Below, one piece after another: positions 19,058 to 26,465 of a stretch of DNA of 64,000 bases. The stretch lies in NCBI GenBank assembly GCA_024226315.1, contig JAAELT010000577.1, forward strand, positions 12,032 to 76,031, written 5' to 3'. The notes beneath the pieces are model-generated. The model was not told where the DNA came from, did not search any database, and worked only from the letters and a program-made list of their open reading frames with translations. Within the stretch, counting starts at the first letter, position 1. The number at the start of each line of letters is the position of its first letter. The DNA comes from a bacterium (GTDB lineage Bacteria; Acidobacteriota; Thermoanaerobaculia; Multivoradales; J023). A program made the position numbers and the translations under genes.

Positions 19058-20593
19058 TCATTCGACGACGAAGGTCTGGAGCTCGACCGGGACCATCGAA
19101 TTGGCCAGGCTGTCGAAGTACACGTCCCCCTTCGTATCGCCGCTGACGGCGGAAGTGAAGGCGAAATATGCGTCGGTGGCGTCGACCACGAGGCCGAGGT
19201 ACTCGCCCAGCCAGGGCTCGCTGCCGGGCAGGTTGGTGGGGGTCGCGAAGCTCTGGTCCGTGACCCGGACATTGGTCGAGAAGGTCGTGCCGCCGTCGGT
19301 GCTCTTGGCCACGTAGACGTCCCACATGTCGTCATTGGCGGCGTTGCGCTTGTCGTACCAGGCGACGTCGATCGTGCCGTCGGACTTGACCACGATCATC
19401 GGATGGATCTGATCGCGGGTCGTGGCGTCGTCGTTGACCGTGAGCGGGGTCGACCACGTGGCTGTGCTGCCGCTCATGGTGGACCTGGTGAAGAAGATGT
19501 CGGCCTCGTCGGCGGCGCCCATGGGATCGGCGGCGTAGACCATGTAGACGGTCGTCGAGCTCGACGGGTTGGTGGCGATGGCCGGATAGCTGCCCGAGCG
19601 CGCGTCGTCCATCGCGCCGCCGAGCGTCGACATGTGGTTCGAGAGCGCGGTGATGTTCTGCGCCACCTGGTCGGTGGTGAAGCTGACCCCGCCGTCGGTC
19701 GACCGGTCGAGGTGCAGCGTGCCGGGCTTGGGGTTCATGTCGGTGACGTCGACGTCGATCCAGGAGACGTAGATCGTGCCGTTGGCGGCCACCGCCACGT
19801 CCGGGACGTTGGCGAAGTCGGACGGCGGTGCCGGCAGCGGCATCCCGCCGGGATTGTCGTTGATCGTCTTCGGGGCGATGCTGCCTGCCGGCACGCCGGT
19901 GAAGTCGAGCCCCGTGGGGTTCATGGGTCCCGGCACGACGGGCGGCGGCGACTTGGCGAAGTAGATGTCACTGGTCGGCAGCCCCTGGCCGACGTCCTTG
20001 ATCCACACCACGTAGACGTGGTCGCTGCCGTCGACGGTCATGTCGGGCCGGTCGTTGAAACGATAGGGATCGGGCATCGGTGGCGGTGGCAGCATCCCGG
20101 CGCGTACGTCGAAGTCGATAGTGTCCGGCCCCGACCAGGTTGCCCCCTTGTCCGTCGACCTCTCGATGTAGATGCCGCCAGGGCCGCCGCCCGAGCCGTC
20201 GGTGGCGATGTAGCCGGCGTAGATGTTGCCCAGGGAGTCGGAGTCGATGAACGGATCGAAGATGAAGCTCAGGGAGATGCCGTCGTCCGGTGACGGCGGC
20301 ATGAGGATCGGATGGGTCGGAACGCCCAGTTGCCGATCGAGCCACGTGGCGCCGGCGTCGAGGCTGAAGCTGACCCCGAGCGGGCTTGAGGCGGCGCCTG
20401 CGTTGTCGTTGTAGGCGACCACGAAGTTGTTGGCGTCGGTGGCGTTCTGCGTGATCCGGATCTCGTTCTGGACCGTGCCGGCGGCGTCGGAGTTGATTTT
20501 GACGTCCACTCCTGCGAGGGCCAGGACCGGCCAGGCCACAACCGCGGCCGTGGCGGCCACGGTCCTGAGTGTCGGCGAGCGCAGATCGATCAT
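19058..20593 (-). CDS. secreted BNR/Asp-box repeat protein (sialidase-like beta-propeller)
   Basis: A GGAGGA RBS precedes ATG MIDLRS (an upstream GTG at 20647 is less likely). Signal peptide present. Asp-box motifs: STDKGATW, STDGGVSF, STDGGTTF, SLDAGATW. Confidence 0.75.
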   Translation of the reverse strand: MIDLRSPTLRTVAATAAVVAWPVLALAGVDVKINSDAAGTVQNEIRITQNATDANNFVVAYNDNAGAASSPLGVSFSLDAGATWLDRQLGVPTHPILMPPSPDDGISLSFIFDPFIDSDSLGNIYAGYIATDGSGGGPGGIYIERSTDKGATWSGPDTIDFDVRAGMLPPPPMPDPYRFNDRPDMTVDGSDHVYVVWIKDVGQGLPTSDIYFAKSPPPVVPGPMNPTGLDFTGVPAGSIAPKTINDNPGGMPLPAPPSDFANVPDVAVAANGTIYVSWIDVDVTDMNPKPGTLHLDRSTDGGVSFTTDQVAQNITALSNHMSTLGGAMDDARSGSYPAIATNPSSSTTVYMVYAADPMGAADEADIFFTRSTMSGSTATWSTPLTVNDDATTRDQIHPMIVVKSDGTIDVAWYDKRNAANDDMWDVYVAKSTDGGTTFSTNVRVTDQSFATPTNLPGSEPWLGEYLGLVVDATDAYFAFTSAVSGDTKGDVYFDSLANSMVPVELQTFVVE

Positions 20594-20742
20594 GTTCGTC
20601 CTCCTCGATCTCGGCACTTCGTTCCAGCGGAACAGGGCGGTGAACACTGTACCACGGTCCCCGCCGACCTATCAGATCGTCCGAATACTCGGGCAATCTG
20701 ATAGGGTTGTTCGACAAATCCGCGGATCAGGGAGGCCGGCAC

Positions 20743-20940
20743 ATGACGTACGACGACGTGATCGCGCAGCTGGAGGAGAACCGCAACGAACGGGGCATGG
20801 CCAACTGGGTCAAGCTCGGGGGAGGCACGAAGCTCGAGAGTTTCGGCATCGGCCTGACCCAGTTGCGCAAGCTGGCCAGGAAAGTCGGGCGCGACCACAT
20901 GCTGCTTTACGAGCTGGGCAAGAAGAAGGGTAAGGCCTGA
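20743..20940 (+). pseudogene. N-terminal 65-aa fragment resembling DNA alkylation repair enzyme (AlkD/PF08713 family), truncated
   Basis: A GGGAGG RBS lies 7 bp before the ATG. VIAQLEENRNERGMANWVKLGGGTKLESFGIGLTQLRKLARKVGRDHMLLYELG matches the N-terminal HEAT-like repeat of the family. It stops where the family continues (LW.S..E.R...). The ATPase gene starts 5 bp later. Confidence 0.45.
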
Positions 20941-20945
20941 CCCGC

Positions 20946-22310
20946 GTGTTGACCCGGCTGGAGGCGGACGGCTTCAAGAACCTGCTCGACTTCCGGGTCG
21001 ACTTCGGTCCCTTCAACTGCATCGCCGGGCCCAACGGCGTCGGCAAGTCGAATGTCTTCGACGCCATTCGCTTCCTGTCGCTGCTGACCGAGCACACCCT
21101 CACCGAGGCGGCGCTCTCCGTGCGTGGCGCGGATCCCGAGGCCAGCGATCCCCAGGACCTGTTCTGGACCGACGGCCAGAACCGCGCCCGCGAGCTGCGC
21201 CTGGCGGCGGAAATGCTGGTCGAGCCGGAGGTGATCGACGACTTCGGCCGCCCCGCCCACGCCAGCTCGACCTTTCTGCGTTACGAGCTGGTGATCGGCC
21301 ATCGCGACCACGGGCTCGAGTTGCTTGCCGAGCGCCTCGGCTACGTGACCGAGCGGGCGGCCGCGCGACGGCTCCGGTTTCCCCACAATGCCGCGGACTT
21401 CAGGCGCGCGGCGGTGGTGAACAGGCGGCGGCGCAAAGACGGTTACGTCTCCACTCACCGGGCGGCGGACGGCTCGGCCGAGATCGCCGTGCACCAGGAC
21501 GCGGGCGGCGTCGGCACCCCGGCGGCACCGGCGTCCTCGGCGCCGCGGACGATCGTCGGCACCTCGGGTACCGCGGTCACGCCGACGCTGCTGGCCGCGC
21601 GTCGGGAGATGGCGCGGTGGCGGCTGCTGGCGCTCGAGCCCCGGGCATGCCGCCGCGCCGACCGCTTTCACGCCGCGCCCCACGTCGACCAGCAGGGCGC
21701 CCACTTGCCCGCGGCGCTGCGACGCCTGGCGGACGGATCCGGAGAGCCGGAAAAGGTTTACGCGCGAATCGCCCGCCGCCTCGCCGAGCTCACGCCGGTG
21801 ACCGGCGTCGGCGTGGCGGTCGACCCGGTACGCAGGCTGCTGACGCTGGAAGTGGTGGAAGAGGGGGGCGCGGTGCTGCCGGCGCGCTCATTGTCGGACG
21901 GCACGCTGCGCTTCCTGGCTCTCTCGATTCTGCGCGAGGATCCCGAGCTCGGCGGCCTGCTGTGCCTGGAAGAGCCCGAGAACGGCGTTCATCCCGGCCG
22001 CATCGAGGCCTGGGTGCGATTGCTGCGCGACCTGGCGGTCGACCCCCGCCAGCCGCCTGGGCCGGGCAATCCACTCCGCCAGGTTATCGTCGCTACACAT
22101 TCGCCCGCCTTCGTCCAGCTGGTGGACGAAGGCGACCTGCTGCTGGCCACCCGCGAGAGCCTCGAGGACCGGAGCGCGACCGCCCTGCGATGCCGTCCTC
22201 TGGCCGGCAGCTGGCGCGCACGGGGCGGGGCCAAGGGTATGAGCCCAGGCACCGCCCTGGCCTACCTCACCACCCAGCACGGCGACCAGATTCGCCTGCC
22301 GGACTTATAG
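20946..22310 (+). CDS. AAA15/OLD-family ABC-type ATPase (stand-alone; defence-associated ATPase class)
   Basis: N-terminus RLEADGFKNLLDFRVDFGPFNCIAGPNGVGKSNVFDAIRFL (Walker A). Q-loop/signature LSDGTLRFLALSIL. Walker B/D-loop LLCLEEPENGVHP. H-loop VIVATHSPAF. A low-complexity insert sits between the lobes. Confidence 0.75.
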   Translation: MLTRLEADGFKNLLDFRVDFGPFNCIAGPNGVGKSNVFDAIRFLSLLTEHTLTEAALSVRGADPEASDPQDLFWTDGQNRARELRLAAEMLVEPEVIDDFGRPAHASSTFLRYELVIGHRDHGLELLAERLGYVTERAAARRLRFPHNAADFRRAAVVNRRRRKDGYVSTHRAADGSAEIAVHQDAGGVGTPAAPASSAPRTIVGTSGTAVTPTLLAARREMARWRLLALEPRACRRADRFHAAPHVDQQGAHLPAALRRLADGSGEPEKVYARIARRLAELTPVTGVGVAVDPVRRLLTLEVVEEGGAVLPARSLSDGTLRFLALSILREDPELGGLLCLEEPENGVHPGRIEAWVRLLRDLAVDPRQPPGPGNPLRQVIVATHSPAFVQLVDEGDLLLATRESLEDRSATALRCRPLAGSWRARGGAKGMSPGTALAYLTTQHGDQIRLPDL

Positions 22311-25300
22311 CCGCGCGGCCGCTCGCTGCGCGATCAGCGTGAAACCCTTGTCGGTGGCTTCCGGCACCAGCGCCTCGAGTCGCGCCCGGCCGTCGGCCGC
22401 GGCCTGGCCGCCGGCCGCGATTTCCACCGCGGCGCGGTCGAGCCTAGCCTCGAAGCCCAACCCCAGCAGACCCAGCTCCGCGGACTCGGCGTCGATACTG
22501 GCGAGCTTACCCAGGGCCGCCGAGGTCTCACGCCGAGCGGCCAGGAGGTTTGCCTCGGCGAGCTCGACCGACAGGCGCACCATCGGATTCTGACTCCTGG
22601 CCGCGTGGTCCCTGACCGCGTCCAGAGCTTCTCGGGCGCCGTCCAACTGCCCCTGGGCGACCCGCACCCTTGCCAGCAGCGCGGCCGCGGCGGCCTGGTA
22701 ATCGGTGCTCTCGCCGCTCCGCAGCTCCTCGACGGTGCGGCTGGCCAGGCTCTCGGCTTCGGCGGTGCGCTTGGTCTCGAGCAGCAGGCGGATCCAGGGC
22801 AGCTGGGTCTCGGCCAGCTCGGCCGGGTCGCCGAGTTGGGAGCGCAGCTCGACGGCCTGATCGAACCGCTCCCGTGCCGTTCCCAGAGCGCCCGTCGCCA
22901 GCAAGACCTGGCCCTGGCCCGAGAGGACGAAACCCAGTAGCGACTTGTTGCCGATCTGGTTGGCGATTTCGGCGGCCTGAGCATACTGCTCCACGGCGCG
23001 CGTCAAGTCGCCAGTGGCGAACGCGATCTTGCCGCGGTAGAAGTGGGCCCAGGCGATCCCTTCCCGGCTCCCGATCTCCCGGTAGAGGGCCATGCCCTCG
23101 AGAGCCGTCTCGTCGGCCTCGGTGTACCCTCCCTTGTGGATCAACACCCAGACTCTGGTGTCGAGGAAACTGGCCTCCATCTCGCGGTCGCCGATATCGC
23201 GCACCGCCGCCACGGCTTCGTCGACCATGGCGATCGCAGCTTCCAGCTCTCCGCGATCGAGGACCAGATCGGCCAGGTTGTTCTGCATCTGGGCAACCCC
23301 TTTGCGGTTGCCCGTCTGGCGGTGGATCTGCAATGTCTGACGGTAGAGCGCCTCGGCCTCCGAGCGCTTGCCTTCGTCTTCGAGCAACACCGCCAAGCCG
23401 CCCAGCACCTCGGCCAGGCGGCTCTGATCGCCGGCCTCCGCCAGCAGCTGCCGGGCTTCCTCCAGGGCTTTTCTGGCCTCGGCTGCGCGTCCGACGCTGC
23501 GCAACGCGCGCCACTGCCGCCGCTGGGCTTCCGCCACCAGGATCCATGCCTCGTGCTCCCGACCCTTGGTGAGCGCGCGCTCGGCGGCAGCCAGCTGGGC
23601 CGGGTAATTCGACAGTGCTCCGCTCGCCGACGCCTCTGCCAGGTCGATCCGGGGATCGTCGCTGGCTGGCGCCGGCAGAGTGCGCAGCGCTTCGAGCGTG
23701 GAGAGGGCATCGCGCGGCCGGCCGGCCGAGACCTCCGCCTCGGCGAGCTGCACGCCGTAGTCGATGTTGCCCGGCGACAGCTCCCACAACATGCGGTAGG
23801 CCGCGGACGCGCGGTCCCACTCGCCCGACGCCTGCCAGTAGCGTCCCTCGATCGCCAGCGATTCCGCCCGCGGCAGCCCCTGGGCCTCCTCGAAGGCCTT
23901 GCGAGCGCTCACCTCCGCCTGCTTGTCGTGGCCGAGGTCACGCCAGGCTTCGCTGAGAGCTGCGTGGGCGAGGGCGAAGCGCGGCTCGAGCTCGACCGCT
24001 TGCTGCAGCAGATCCCGAGCCGCCAGGGCGTCGAAACCGCGCAGCTCTTCGAGCCCTTCGGAGTACAGTTTGTTGGCCTCCGGGCTGGCGGACAACAGTG
24101 CCCGGACCGCCTCCTTCTGCTCATCCGAGAGCTCGGCGATGCCTAGTCGCTGACGCAGGATCTTGCCGGTGCGCGATACCAGCTCGAATAGCTCGGCCTC
24201 CGTGCCGGAGTCCGAGAGGGCGACGATCTTGCTCTCCTCGCGGGTATCCTGCAGCCGCAGCAGCAGCCGGAACTCGGAGTTCTCCTCGACTCCGACCGGC
24301 AGGTAAGAGCCGAGGAGGACATAGTCGGTGCCGAGGTTCCGGGCGATGGCGTCCAGGGTGTCGGCGCCGAGGGTCTCGACGTCCGGTGGCGCCAGCTCGA
24401 GCTTCATGTGGGCGATGCTCTCGCCGGGGATCAGGCGCAGCTGGCCACCGGTCGCCAGCTCGGTGGAAAACAGCTCCGAGAGCGCGGTCGACAGCCAGGC
24501 CAGCTCGGGCCTGCCGGAGAGATTCTTGAATCCGAGCACGGCGATCGCGGGCCTGGTCTCCGCCGACAGTGACTGTCGGCCCGTGGGTAGCACGAAGACC
24601 TTGATCAACAGCGCGATCAACACCAGTGCCGCGATTCCACGCAGCAGCCCGGGCAGCGTCCAGCGGCTACTCTTCGGCTGGACGCTCTCGTCGACCACGC
24701 GCCTGGCCTTCTCGCGGTCGGCGGGTGGTGCCAGCGGCGCGTTGCCCTCGAGGCCGGCCTCGAAGATCTGTAGACGGTCCTCCACTCCCTTGAAACGGTA
24801 CTCACCGTGGCTCATCCAGTGGACCGGGCGACCGTCGACATGCTCCTCTTTCATGGCCCGGCGCGACAGGTCGAAGGCCGCCCTGGTGAGCAGGGTCTGC
24901 CCACCTCCGGCGAGACTCATCGCCCGTGCCGCGATCGGCTTGGCGAGGCCTTGGACCTCGATCGGCTTGGCCCCGCGCAGGATGTCCTGCAGCGGGGTCT
25001 CGTGGAGGATCACTTCCCCGAGGTGTATGCCGACCCGTGCCTTGAGCTCGATGTCGGCTTCCGCCGAGACCCGCTCCAATTCGAGGTGGTACTTGAACGC
25101 GAACTCCACGGCGTCGACCGGCCGCTTGAACAGGATCAGGAAGCCGTCGGTCTTGTCGATCTCGCGTCCCTGGAACTCGGTCATCAGATCTCGGGCCAGC
25201 CGATCGTGGTGCGCCAGCACGTCGGCGGCACGGCGGTCGCCGAGATCCTCCACCAGGCGGGTGCTGCCGACCAGGTCGGTGACCAGGAGGGTCTTCAGGG

Positions 25301-26465
25301 ACACGATCTGCGTCTCGGTCGATCCCGCCTTGCTGTCCCCCCGGTGGGGGCCCGGATCGGTCAGCTCAGACAGCTTGATCGACTGGGTGCCCGGCATCGG
25401 CCCCTTGCCGGCCTCGATGCCGGATAGGGCCGAAACCACTTCCGCCGCGGTCTGGAGCCGGTTCTCGGGCTCTTTCTCCAGCAGCCGGTCGATCAGGGCG
25501 GACAGCTCGGCAGAGACCTGGTCGTTCACTCGGTTCGCGCTTTCCTGACGGCGGGAGCAAAGGCGCTGCAGGGTCTGGACGTAGCTGGAGCCGACGAACG
25601 GCGCTCGGCCGGTCACCATCTCGTAGAGCAGCGAGCCCAGTGAGAAGAGATCGGAGCGATGATCGACGACGTGTCCCATCGCCTGCTCGGGGGACAGGGT
25701 GCGGATGGCTCCCGGTGTGGCGATCGTTTCGCGCAGCGGATCGTCCTTGTCCCGGTGCAGGAGTCTGGCGAGGCCAATGTCGAGGATCTTGGCGTGGCCG
25801 TCGTCGCTCACCAGCACGCTGTCGGACTGCAGGCTCAGGAAGACGATGTCGCGGTCGTGGGCAACGGCCATCCCCTCGGTGATTTCGCGCGCCAGGGGCA
25901 CCGCCTGGACAGGGTCGAGGGCTCCTTCGTCGAGCAGCGCCCGCAGCGTTTGCCCCTCGATGAACTCCATCACGATCCAGTCGCCGTCCTCGGCCTCGAC
26001 GAAATCGTAGATCCGCACCAGGGACGGATGGCTCAAGCCGGCGATCGCGCGCGCGCCGCGCCGGAACCGCTCGAGCTCGAGGAGGTCGTCGATCACCGCC
26101 TGCCTCATCGTCACCCAGCGCTCCAGGTGCTCGTCCCAGGCGCGATAGACCATGCCCAGCTCGCCGACGCCGAGCCGGTTCTCGATGCGGTAGTGTCCGA
26201 CGCTCTCGGACGAGCCGAGTCGATTGGTCCCGTTCACCTGGCCCACCGGCCCCCACGGTCGTCTCGACCGTGGGCACGGCACCAGGGACGGAGCGCTGAA
26301 CGGTGAGAGAAATCCGTGTCGTGCAAGTCGTCCACCTGGCTTTGATCCGTCCGATCTTACACCAGGGAGAGGCGTCTGTTTGCCTGGCCTTCTCTGCCGA
26401 GGCATCTTTTGCCTGGGGTGCTGCGGTAAGTTCCGTGACGAGCTGCGACAGACCGATCGCGACAT
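22305..26465 (-). CDS. multidomain Ser/Thr kinase / adenylate-guanylate cyclase (CHD) / TM / TolB-N-like / TPR signalling protein (true start probably near 26310)
   Basis: Kinase: YRIENRLGVGELGMVYRAW, DIVFLSLQSDSVLV, DIGLAR. CHD cyclase: LLVTDLVGSTRL...GFLILFKRPVDAVEFAFKYH...ARVGIHLGEVI. TM: IAALVLIALLIKVFVL. Then AVLGFKNLSGRPELAWLS and a long TPR array. Confidence 0.8.
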   Translation of the reverse strand: MSRSVCRSSSRNLPQHPRQKMPRQRRPGKQTPLPGVRSDGSKPGGRLARHGFLSPFSAPSLVPCPRSRRPWGPVGQVNGTNRLGSSESVGHYRIENRLGVGELGMVYRAWDEHLERWVTMRQAVIDDLLELERFRRGARAIAGLSHPSLVRIYDFVEAEDGDWIVMEFIEGQTLRALLDEGALDPVQAVPLAREITEGMAVAHDRDIVFLSLQSDSVLVSDDGHAKILDIGLARLLHRDKDDPLRETIATPGAIRTLSPEQAMGHVVDHRSDLFSLGSLLYEMVTGRAPFVGSSYVQTLQRLCSRRQESANRVNDQVSAELSALIDRLLEKEPENRLQTAAEVVSALSGIEAGKGPMPGTQSIKLSELTDPGPHRGDSKAGSTETQIVSLKTLLVTDLVGSTRLVEDLGDRRAADVLAHHDRLARDLMTEFQGREIDKTDGFLILFKRPVDAVEFAFKYHLELERVSAEADIELKARVGIHLGEVILHETPLQDILRGAKPIEVQGLAKPIAARAMSLAGGGQTLLTRAAFDLSRRAMKEEHVDGRPVHWMSHGEYRFKGVEDRLQIFEAGLEGNAPLAPPADREKARRVVDESVQPKSSRWTLPGLLRGIAALVLIALLIKVFVLPTGRQSLSAETRPAIAVLGFKNLSGRPELAWLSTALSELFSTELATGGQLRLIPGESIAHMKLELAPPDVETLGADTLDAIARNLGTDYVLLGSYLPVGVEENSEFRLLLRLQDTREESKIVALSDSGTEAELFELVSRTGKILRQRLGIAELSDEQKEAVRALLSASPEANKLYSEGLEELRGFDALAARDLLQQAVELEPRFALAHAALSEAWRDLGHDKQAEVSARKAFEEAQGLPRAESLAIEGRYWQASGEWDRASAAYRMLWELSPGNIDYGVQLAEAEVSAGRPRDALSTLEALRTLPAPASDDPRIDLAEASASGALSNYPAQLAAAERALTKGREHEAWILVAEAQRRQWRALRSVGRAAEARKALEEARQLLAEAGDQSRLAEVLGGLAVLLEDEGKRSEAEALYRQTLQIHRQTGNRKGVAQMQNNLADLVLDRGELEAAIAMVDEAVAAVRDIGDREMEASFLDTRVWVLIHKGGYTEADETALEGMALYREIGSREGIAWAHFYRGKIAFATGDLTRAVEQYAQAAEIANQIGNKSLLGFVLSGQGQVLLATGALGTARERFDQAVELRSQLGDPAELAETQLPWIRLLLETKRTAEAESLASRTVEELRSGESTDYQAAAAALLARVRVAQGQLDGAREALDAVRDHAARSQNPMVRLSVELAEANLLAARRETSAALGKLASIDAESAELGLLGLGFEARLDRAAVEIAAGGQAAADGRARLEALVPEATDKGFTLIAQRAAARL

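Follow-up and report, generated by a model that had tools for sequence, protein, structure and literature searches.

The 64-kb window analysed here, a high-GC stretch (about 67%) of contig JAAELT010000577.1 from a member of the Acidobacteriota, carries a gene for an ATP-binding cassette (ABC) ATPase of the kind found in anti-phage defence systems, with no nuclease gene beside it. The gene lies 5 bp (20941–20945) behind a small open reading frame (ORF) and meets a Ser/Thr kinase gene at its 3' end, where the stop codon of the ATPase (TAG, 22308–22310) and that of the kinase (TTA at 22305–22307, which is TAA on the minus strand) fall within a convergent overlap of 6 bp. The start codon of the ATPase is fixed by the conserved N-terminus MLTRLE in the family alignment. 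The small ORF is preceded by the Shine–Dalgarno sequence GGGAGG (20730–20735), its ATG following 7 nt further on, and the third-position GC content of both reading frames is of coding type (GC3 of 0.82 and 0.88). This layout, comprising a 454-aa ATPase, a 65-aa ORF 5 bp upstream and a convergent 3' overlap with the kinase, had been described in an earlier note on this DNA, and the coordinates agree. They are collected in Table 1.

The earlier note had pointed to the DefenseFinder and PADLOC models as a means of classifying the protein. A PADLOC search places it in the HEC-01A family (PDLC04184; E = 5.9e-94, 313.7 bits), with residues 1–395 of the protein aligned to positions 1–396 of the 464 in the model. 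HEC-01, for Hma-embedded candidate 01 of PADLOC-DB v2, is a candidate two-gene anti-phage system that pairs an ABC ATPase with a TOPRIM-like protein, HEC-01B. [quoted passage not shown] The other PADLOC scores of the ATPase were 4e-28 and 1e-16 for two AriA models and about 1e-10 for GajA and Old. In Pfam it matches AAA_21 (1e-28) and AAA_15 (3e-15), both above their cut-offs, along with SMC_N over the P-loop region. Sequence matches in the PDB, to OLD nucleases from Thermus (6p74) and from retron Eco8, are confined to the N-terminal P-loop region. [quoted passage not shown] With this model, Foldseek returned SMC, Rad50, OLD, PtuA and AriA heads at the top, at a probability of 1.0 and with template modelling scores of only 0.2–0.3. 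The Pfam, PADLOC and PDB sequence matches agree with the class first proposed for the protein, an ABC ATPase of the defence-associated AAA_15/AAA_21 type, akin to those of OLD, PARIS and Septu. Protein searches gave more than 6,900 matches, of which the top 120 are all full-length. Their identity to the window ATPase is 57–97% overall and 55–63% outside its own clade, and some come from metagenome-assembled genomes of other phyla. A scan of viral contigs found relatives only 24–29% identical and gave no evidence for a phage-borne subfamily.

Motif conservation, judged on the 27-sequence family alignment, shows a complete ABC ATPase set: Walker A, signature, Walker B with the catalytic glutamate (E342/E343) and H-loop. 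The Arg/Ala-rich stretch at about residues 136–230 had been regarded as an unusual low-complexity insert. That view does not hold, since the stretch is aligned without gaps throughout the family, with about 20 positions invariant across phyla. On this alignment it is a hallmark of the subfamily, with a composition that reflects the high GC content. It is very improbable that the protein is a housekeeping DNA-repair ABC ATPase, RecF-, SbcC- or RecN-like and with conserved synteny. Its N-terminus does match SMC_N and RecF, its clade has a chromosomal synteny in which the ATPase is followed by a DUF885 gene, and the window is core chromosome without signs of mobile elements. However, the RecF match (TIGR00611) covers residues 2–48 only and, at 33 bits, falls short of its cut-off of 172, the SMC matches reach 21–24 bits against 567–729 and cover only the P-loop, and the best full-length matches are all to defence-candidate models. 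Furthermore, sister sequences possess a TOPRIM partner, and an insertion sequence (IS) element or integrase gene adjoins in two of the loci examined.

Table 1. Coordinates of the features at the ATPase locus (positions in the window; residues and codons are those of the respective protein)
Feature	Position	Strand	Details
Intergenic region, BNR/sialidase-like gene and alkD remnant divergent	20648–20742	.	holds palindrome and Shine–Dalgarno sequence
Small ORF	20743–20940	+	ATG start, 65 codons, 65 aa
alkD-like remnant, putative piece 1, codons 1–52	20743–20898	+	PF08713 profile positions ~2–55 of 213
alkD-like remnant, putative piece 2, codons 53–65 (MLLYELGKKKGKA) and stop	20899–20940	+	~residues 138–150 of full-length homologues
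ATPase ORF	20946–22310	+	GTG start, 454 aa; intact, no partner
Walker A/P-loop, GPNGVGKS	21027–21050	+	residues 28–35; invariant columns G28, N30, G33, K34, S35
ABC signature-like motif, SLSDGT	21888–21905	+	residues 315–320; invariant columns S315–G319
Walker B and loop, LLCLEEPENG	21957–21986	+	residues 338–347; invariant C340, E342–G347, H349, P350
H-loop, ATHSP	22092–22106	+	residues 383–387; invariant A383, H385, S386, P387
Strain-variable tract, ATPase codons ~341–454 and kinase 3' end	21975–22575	.	up to ~23 differences per 100 bp versus L001
Ser/Thr kinase with weak cyclase-like region, transmembrane segment and TPR repeats	22305–26465	-	up to 1386 aa; Pfam Pkinase, TPR

The partner that would be expected is well illustrated by a locus (L006) whose ATPase is 57% identical to that of the window. 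Here a 217-aa gene follows without an intergenic gap, its product matching HEC-01B (PDLC04210, 5e-17) and, weakly, DUF4276. A partner profile seeded with this protein and built from more than 70 HEC-01B-like partners encoded downstream of related ATPases gave no match when run against the 64-kb window in six frames, the best E value being 3. There is no physical room for a downstream partner, as the ATPase abuts the kinase gene, and the small ORF has no PADLOC match. Within the window, therefore, the absence of a nuclease partner asserted in the earlier note is confirmed. Nor was a partner found in any of the nine other loci of the same clade (L001, L002, L005, L088–L090 and L188–L190). Judged by its profile match and its motifs, the gene encodes a bona fide HEC-01A ATPase without its effector.

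The wider family provides the background against which this absence can be set. Among 80 loci in reference genomes of many phyla, drawn from a scan of GTDB genomes and with ATPases of 43–58% identity to that of the window, about 64 have one intact partner ORF. The partner is split in two at about six loci, present only as a short remnant at four, and absent from six. With a damaged or missing partner at about 20% of the 80 loci, orphan ATPases seem to arise repeatedly through decay of the partner. A frameshift divides HEC-01B into two ORFs, with the ATPase intact, at L007 (where the frameshifted partner occupies 7430–8071), L019, L022, L035, L054 and L084. At another locus (L198), on plasmid p1 of Burkholderia sp. 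FERM BP-3421 (NZ_CP117780.1), a 49%-identical ATPase gene is overlapped by a gene for a 218-aa partner and adjoins an IS3 transposase. In RefSeq this pair is annotated as 'AAA family ATPase' and 'hypothetical protein', so that standard annotation misses it.

The closest relatives of the window ATPase, eleven proteins (P0001–P0011) of 71–97% identity, form a monophyletic group with it, recovered in 100 of 100 bootstrap replicates of a neighbour-joining tree of 122 sequences. Two characters mark this clade. The motif EEPENGVHPG[RK], tested among the 120 protein-search matches and the 80 genome loci, is present in 11/11 clade members and in none of the 109 other family proteins or the 80 loci. 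A deletion of 8–9 residues near residue 120 is common to the clade and does not occur in the other family sequences compared. Among more distant proteins the motif is less exclusive, EEPENGVHPG being found in distant AAA_21 ATPases of at most 46% identity in a metagenome scan. A degenerate DNA pattern specific to the clade's EEPENGVHPG recovered 97 stretches from the metagenome collection, none from the orphan clade and the best 46% identical. The GTDB genome scan likewise contained no close relative (best 58%), and it serves as the background of partnered family members.

Members of the clade share a chromosomal setting. In seven of ten distinct contexts (L005, L088, L089, L188, L189, L190 and L191) the next gene downstream of the ATPase is a DUF885 gene, at spacings that range from a 93-bp gap to a 4-bp overlap. 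L191, at 78% identity the closest relative outside the population to which the window and L001 belong, is among them. DUF885 genes are missing from the window and from the 6 kb around each of the 80 partnered loci. The DUF885 proteins were considered as a replacement effector and rejected on account of their lipoprotein signal peptide (LLAAC); they are syntenic neighbours rather than plausible cytoplasmic effectors. On the upstream side the clade has four different contexts. In one sub-clade (L005, L088 and L190) the ATPase start is preceded, about 20–45 nt upstream, by a GC-rich hairpin-like sequence, ccgccggaggcgggccaacgaag, which the window lacks.

Our reading of this distribution is that the TOPRIM gene was probably lost once, at the base of the clade, after which the ATPase would have persisted as a chromosomally fixed single gene. 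We read the arrangement in the window, with no DUF885 gene and with the kinase convergent downstream, as a later rearrangement particular to its lineage. Since the orphan state is clade-wide and the ancestral order appears to have been ATPase then DUF885, the partner would have been lost long before the gene reached the alkD stump. Lack of a partner is accordingly no special feature of this insertion.

Selection has continued to act on the orphan genes. Pairwise ratios of nonsynonymous to synonymous substitution (dN/dS, NG86 method) among the orphan ATPases are 0.15–0.35, compared with a median of 0.12 (interquartile range 0.09–0.14, maximum 0.21) for partnered genes at similar divergence. These values indicate that the orphan ATPase is under purifying selection, relaxed about two-fold relative to the partnered form. 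They bear directly on the alternative that the gene is a decaying relic, functionless since the loss of TOPRIM and intact only because too little time has elapsed. Partner decay is common, about 20% of the 80 loci having a split, remnant or missing partner, the dN/dS of the orphans is about twice that of the partnered genes, and the window ATPase adjoins another decayed gene, all of which would fit such a relic. Against this, the clade has diverged to 71–73% identity (dS up to about 0.75) with every compared copy of full length, its catalytic residues are all invariant at a dN/dS well below 1, and it is old enough to have acquired four upstream contexts. Pure decay is thus unlikely, because the clade has persisted for a long time with dN/dS well below 1. 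With the catalytic motifs intact under purifying selection, the ATPase is predicted to form a head-to-head dimer that still binds and hydrolyses ATP.

The small ORF upstream appears to be what is left of a different gene. On its own it has no match in Pfam (E up to 10), NCBIfam, PADLOC or the PDB, so that direct alignment to PF08713, the AlkD-like family suggested for it, fails; the homology emerges instead through its homologues, which uphold the proposed AlkD-family origin. Among the short metagenomic homologues recovered by a word-indexed search, two (P0122 and P0123) score above the gathering threshold of PF08713, over profile positions 2–69 and 5–85 of 213. The C-terminus of P0123 (...LIHISEPTRPY) resembles what we take to be a translated sequencing-adapter artefact, and was trimmed before alignment. 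An exhaustive HMMER search raised the number of homologues to 110, nearly all of which align residues 1 to about 60 of the ORF at or near their own N-terminus. The complete homologues are 224–234 aa long, and in three of the four that were scanned (P0252, P0260 and P0277) PF08713 covers most of the length (profile positions 2–198). Residues 1 to about 52 of the ORF are 52–67% identical to the N-termini of these 224–234-aa proteins. The tail of the ORF differs from the residues which normally follow GRDH in the homologues. Its last 14 residues, HMLLYELGKKKGKA, instead match residues 137–150 of P0252, YMLLYELAKKKGKA, at 12 of 14 positions (E = 8e-5), and HMMER reports two matched stretches in each of P0252 and P0260. 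The remaining alkD-like codons (the final 80 or so) are nowhere in the window.

By this alignment the small ORF is a remnant consisting of about 52 N-terminal codons, a putative in-frame internal deletion of about 85 codons, and a truncation near ancestral codon 150. The earlier note had seen in it a first HEAT-like repeat cut off in mid-domain; the truncation stands, whereas a simple cut does not, the match of the tail to residues 137–150 implying an internal deletion. About 65 of some 230 residues (28%) are kept. Most of the HEAT-like repeat solenoid is missing, and the product therefore cannot be a functional glycosylase. Two origins had been offered for this junction, replacement of the rest of the alkD gene by the ATPase and the birth of a new partner protein, and the evidence favours the former.

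The second of these is scarcely credible. The small ORF does look like a partner in its 5-bp gap, strong Shine–Dalgarno sequence, coding-like GC3 and 100% conservation in L001. That identity is uninformative, however, because L001 belongs to the same population as the window, the flanks of the two being 0–0.26% diverged. Neither the nine other orphan loci nor the 80 family loci contain an equivalent of the ORF, and it appears to consist of two stretches of a PF08713 gene brought together by a deletion and cut short, with about 165 of some 230 residues gone.

The comparison with L001 has a further feature. The two sequences are 98.3% identical over 6.2 kb, and their differences are markedly clustered. 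Divergence is 0–0.3% in the flanks, in the stump and over the first 340 codons of the ATPase, while the differences concentrate in the strain-variable tract of Table 1, where 34 synonymous and 12 nonsynonymous codon changes are found. The tract coincides with the most indel-prone and variable, C-terminal part of the family alignment. It looks like an import by homologous recombination, or a strain-mosaic assembly, rather than the product of hypermutation.

The convergent kinase gene raises the question of whether the ATPase has acquired a new associate. The kinase matches the 'putative peptide modification system cyclase' model (TIGR04510) at 267 bits, against a cut-off of 400, and its PADLOC matches to PD-T4-6 and mad6 are restricted to the generic kinase domain. 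Its true start probably lies downstream of 26465, giving a protein of about 1300–1386 aa, because the alignment with its relatives begins at residue 87. Kinase/TPR genes with the same full-length architecture are divergent upstream of the ATPase in L005, L089 and L090, lie about 4 kb upstream in L088, and are convergent downstream in the window and L001. The window kinase is 44–45% identical over its full length to those of L005, L089 and L090. The 80 partnered loci have no kinase of this type within 6 kb.

It has therefore to be asked whether the orphan ATPase and this membrane protein, with its Ser/Thr kinase, cyclase-like and TPR regions (joined in some genomes by FHA or ECF-sigma genes), form a two-component unit exapted for signalling or defence. 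The adjacency in two different arrangements, with none among the 80 partnered loci, is what such a unit would produce, and the weak matches to MAD3 and MAD6 are a loose echo of MADS, which has an ATPase (MAD3) and a kinase (MAD6). These matches are far below the cut-offs (135 against 420 for MAD3 and 124 against 460 for MAD6), and L005, L088, L089 and L090 are a single sub-clade, leaving only about two independent observations. Three orphan loci (L002, L188 and L189) lack the kinase family altogether. Kinase/TPR genes are common in the genome of the window, with two in the 64 kb, and the window kinase is 44–45% identical to the others, which are 75–78% identical to one another, so that it may be a paralogue. 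Proximity can, moreover, survive short-range rearrangements without any function. An exapted unit is distinctly unlikely on this evidence, and the related idea that a defence-derived HEC-01A ATPase, having shed its TOPRIM nuclease, became a permanent, domesticated part of the chromosome in a lineage of uncultured bacteria, to make up a nuclease-free sensing or signalling module together with the kinase/TPR protein, is to be treated as similarly doubtful.

The surroundings of the locus are those of an ordinary chromosome. The neighbours encode core and metabolic functions (a saccharopine dehydrogenase, an AlaDH-like protein, a BNR/sialidase-like protein, a PLP decarboxylase, a VWA protein, an M14 peptidase, GDH, RpoD and AcrB). 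No further matches to defence models were found among the window ORFs that were scanned, ten unannotated ORFs giving no PADLOC match, and the ATPase is neither in a defence island nor embedded in Hma. Around the ATPase, a search for the signatures of insertion (direct or inverted repeats, tRNA genes, integrase) revealed nothing convincing. The intergenic region upstream of the stump is presumed to be a promoter region now serving both the remnant and the ATPase. A scan of 20400–22600 for sigma-70 promoters, by simple consensus, and for intrinsic terminators was uninformative, with no sigma-70 promoter found. Between the BNR/sialidase-like gene and the stump lies a near-perfect palindrome (20668–20705) with 17-nt arms, CCTATCAGATCGTCCGA-ATAC-TCGGGCAATCTGATAGG, which looks like an operator site. 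Elsewhere in the window, an RHS-repeat protein gene at 11638–14298 borders the lowest GC content of the whole stretch (53% at 14001–15000), and the small ORFs in this low-GC part of 11638–15200 have no Pfam or PADLOC matches. The region could be an RHS toxin tip with its immunity gene.

Taken as a whole, the evidence indicates that this is probably an intact but partnerless HEC-01A ATPase of an orphan clade, of sensor or scaffold type, which sits behind a decayed AlkD-like gene and is not a complete defence system. HEC-01A would be the SMC/Rad50-head-like ATPase half of a pair, the other half of which, HEC-01B, is a TOPRIM/DUF4276-like putative nuclease of about 215 aa encoded immediately downstream. 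A monophyletic sub-lineage appears to have lost the TOPRIM gene and to have passed on the ATPase as a chromosomal single gene in uncultured high-GC bacteria, typically in the order ATPase then DUF885 lipoprotein gene and often with a large kinase/TPR gene near. In the lineage of the window a local rearrangement would then have detached the ATPase from DUF885 and left it 5 bp behind the PF08713 stump. The promoter region, strong ribosome-binding site and translation of the stump probably now feed the ATPase, because the Shine–Dalgarno sequence and start codon are intact and the spacing is 5 bp. In complete systems the ATPase may act as a sensor or scaffold which controls the TOPRIM nuclease, by analogy with PARIS, OLD and Gabija. 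Without the nuclease it would be unable to execute the cleavage step, and its most likely state is that of a retained sensor/scaffold ATPase. Such a protein would either serve an effector whose gene lies elsewhere or, with constraint relaxed about two-fold, have drifted into a role that needs no nuclease.

Several points weigh against this explanation. The structural comparison, resting as it does on a low-quality model, appears to show no more than a generic ABC fold and does not discriminate between OLD, PARIS and Septu heads. A TOPRIM partner may lie elsewhere in the genome, the search having covered 64 kb. The roughly two-fold higher dN/dS of the orphans is also compatible with slow decay. 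The clade comprises about 12 sequences from few samples, mostly on short metagenomic contigs, so that the case for vertical inheritance is built on synteny rather than on a species tree. As regards the stump, the internal deletion is deduced from a 14-residue match that is strongest to a single homologue (P0252). No relative with an intact alkD gene at this site was found; homologues of the BNR/sialidase-like neighbour are 65–73% identical, and none of their contigs is among those with alkD-like hits. The direction of the rearrangement, whether the ATPase moved into alkD or deletions joined the two, is likewise deduced.

A number of parallels can be drawn with known systems. With HEC-01 itself the window ATPase shares a full-length match to HEC-01A and the same inserts. 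Its relatives at 43–63% identity have the HEC-01B TOPRIM-like gene directly downstream, whereas it and the rest of its clade do not. The window copy also lies outside any Hma system or defence island, and the synteny of its clade is chromosomal, with a DUF885 gene. In PARIS, a sensor/scaffold ATPase holds a TOPRIM nuclease (PMC11464382). AriA belongs to the same AAA_21/AAA_15 class of ABC ATPase and its structures were recovered by the fold search, but the window ATPase matches AriA far more weakly than HEC-01A, and the AriB partner is a DUF4435 TOPRIM protein while that of HEC-01 is DUF4276-like and absent from the window. With AriA scores so far below that of HEC-01A and no TOPRIM gene in the window, the ATPase is not a member of PARIS. 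OLD family proteins, GajA of Gabija, and the retron-associated PtuA and Eco8 effectors share the ABC ATPase head, yet they possess a fused or partnered TOPRIM or HNH nuclease, in contrast to the window ATPase, which has no nuclease domain. Nor does the protein belong to MADS, its match to the MAD3 ATPase (NCBIfam NF047739) reaching 135 bits against a cut-off of 420.

HEC-01A was already known as a candidate defence family. What is new here is its effector-less, chromosomally fixed form and the gene remnant that accompanies it; no new system is described, and current understanding is unchanged unless the linkage to the kinase or a new function is demonstrated. The locus nonetheless holds lessons for annotation. 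Automated defence annotation would either ignore or over-call an orphan ATPase gene of this type, and a defence-type ATPase should not be equated with a defence system. As the alkD stump shows, a short ORF that is still translatable may be left over from a rearrangement and be mistaken for a small partner gene. For the family as a whole, the loss of TOPRIM appears to be old, clade-wide and tolerated, and the clade may thus provide a natural test case for whether sensor ATPases of the OLD/PARIS kind can act in trans or independently of an effector.

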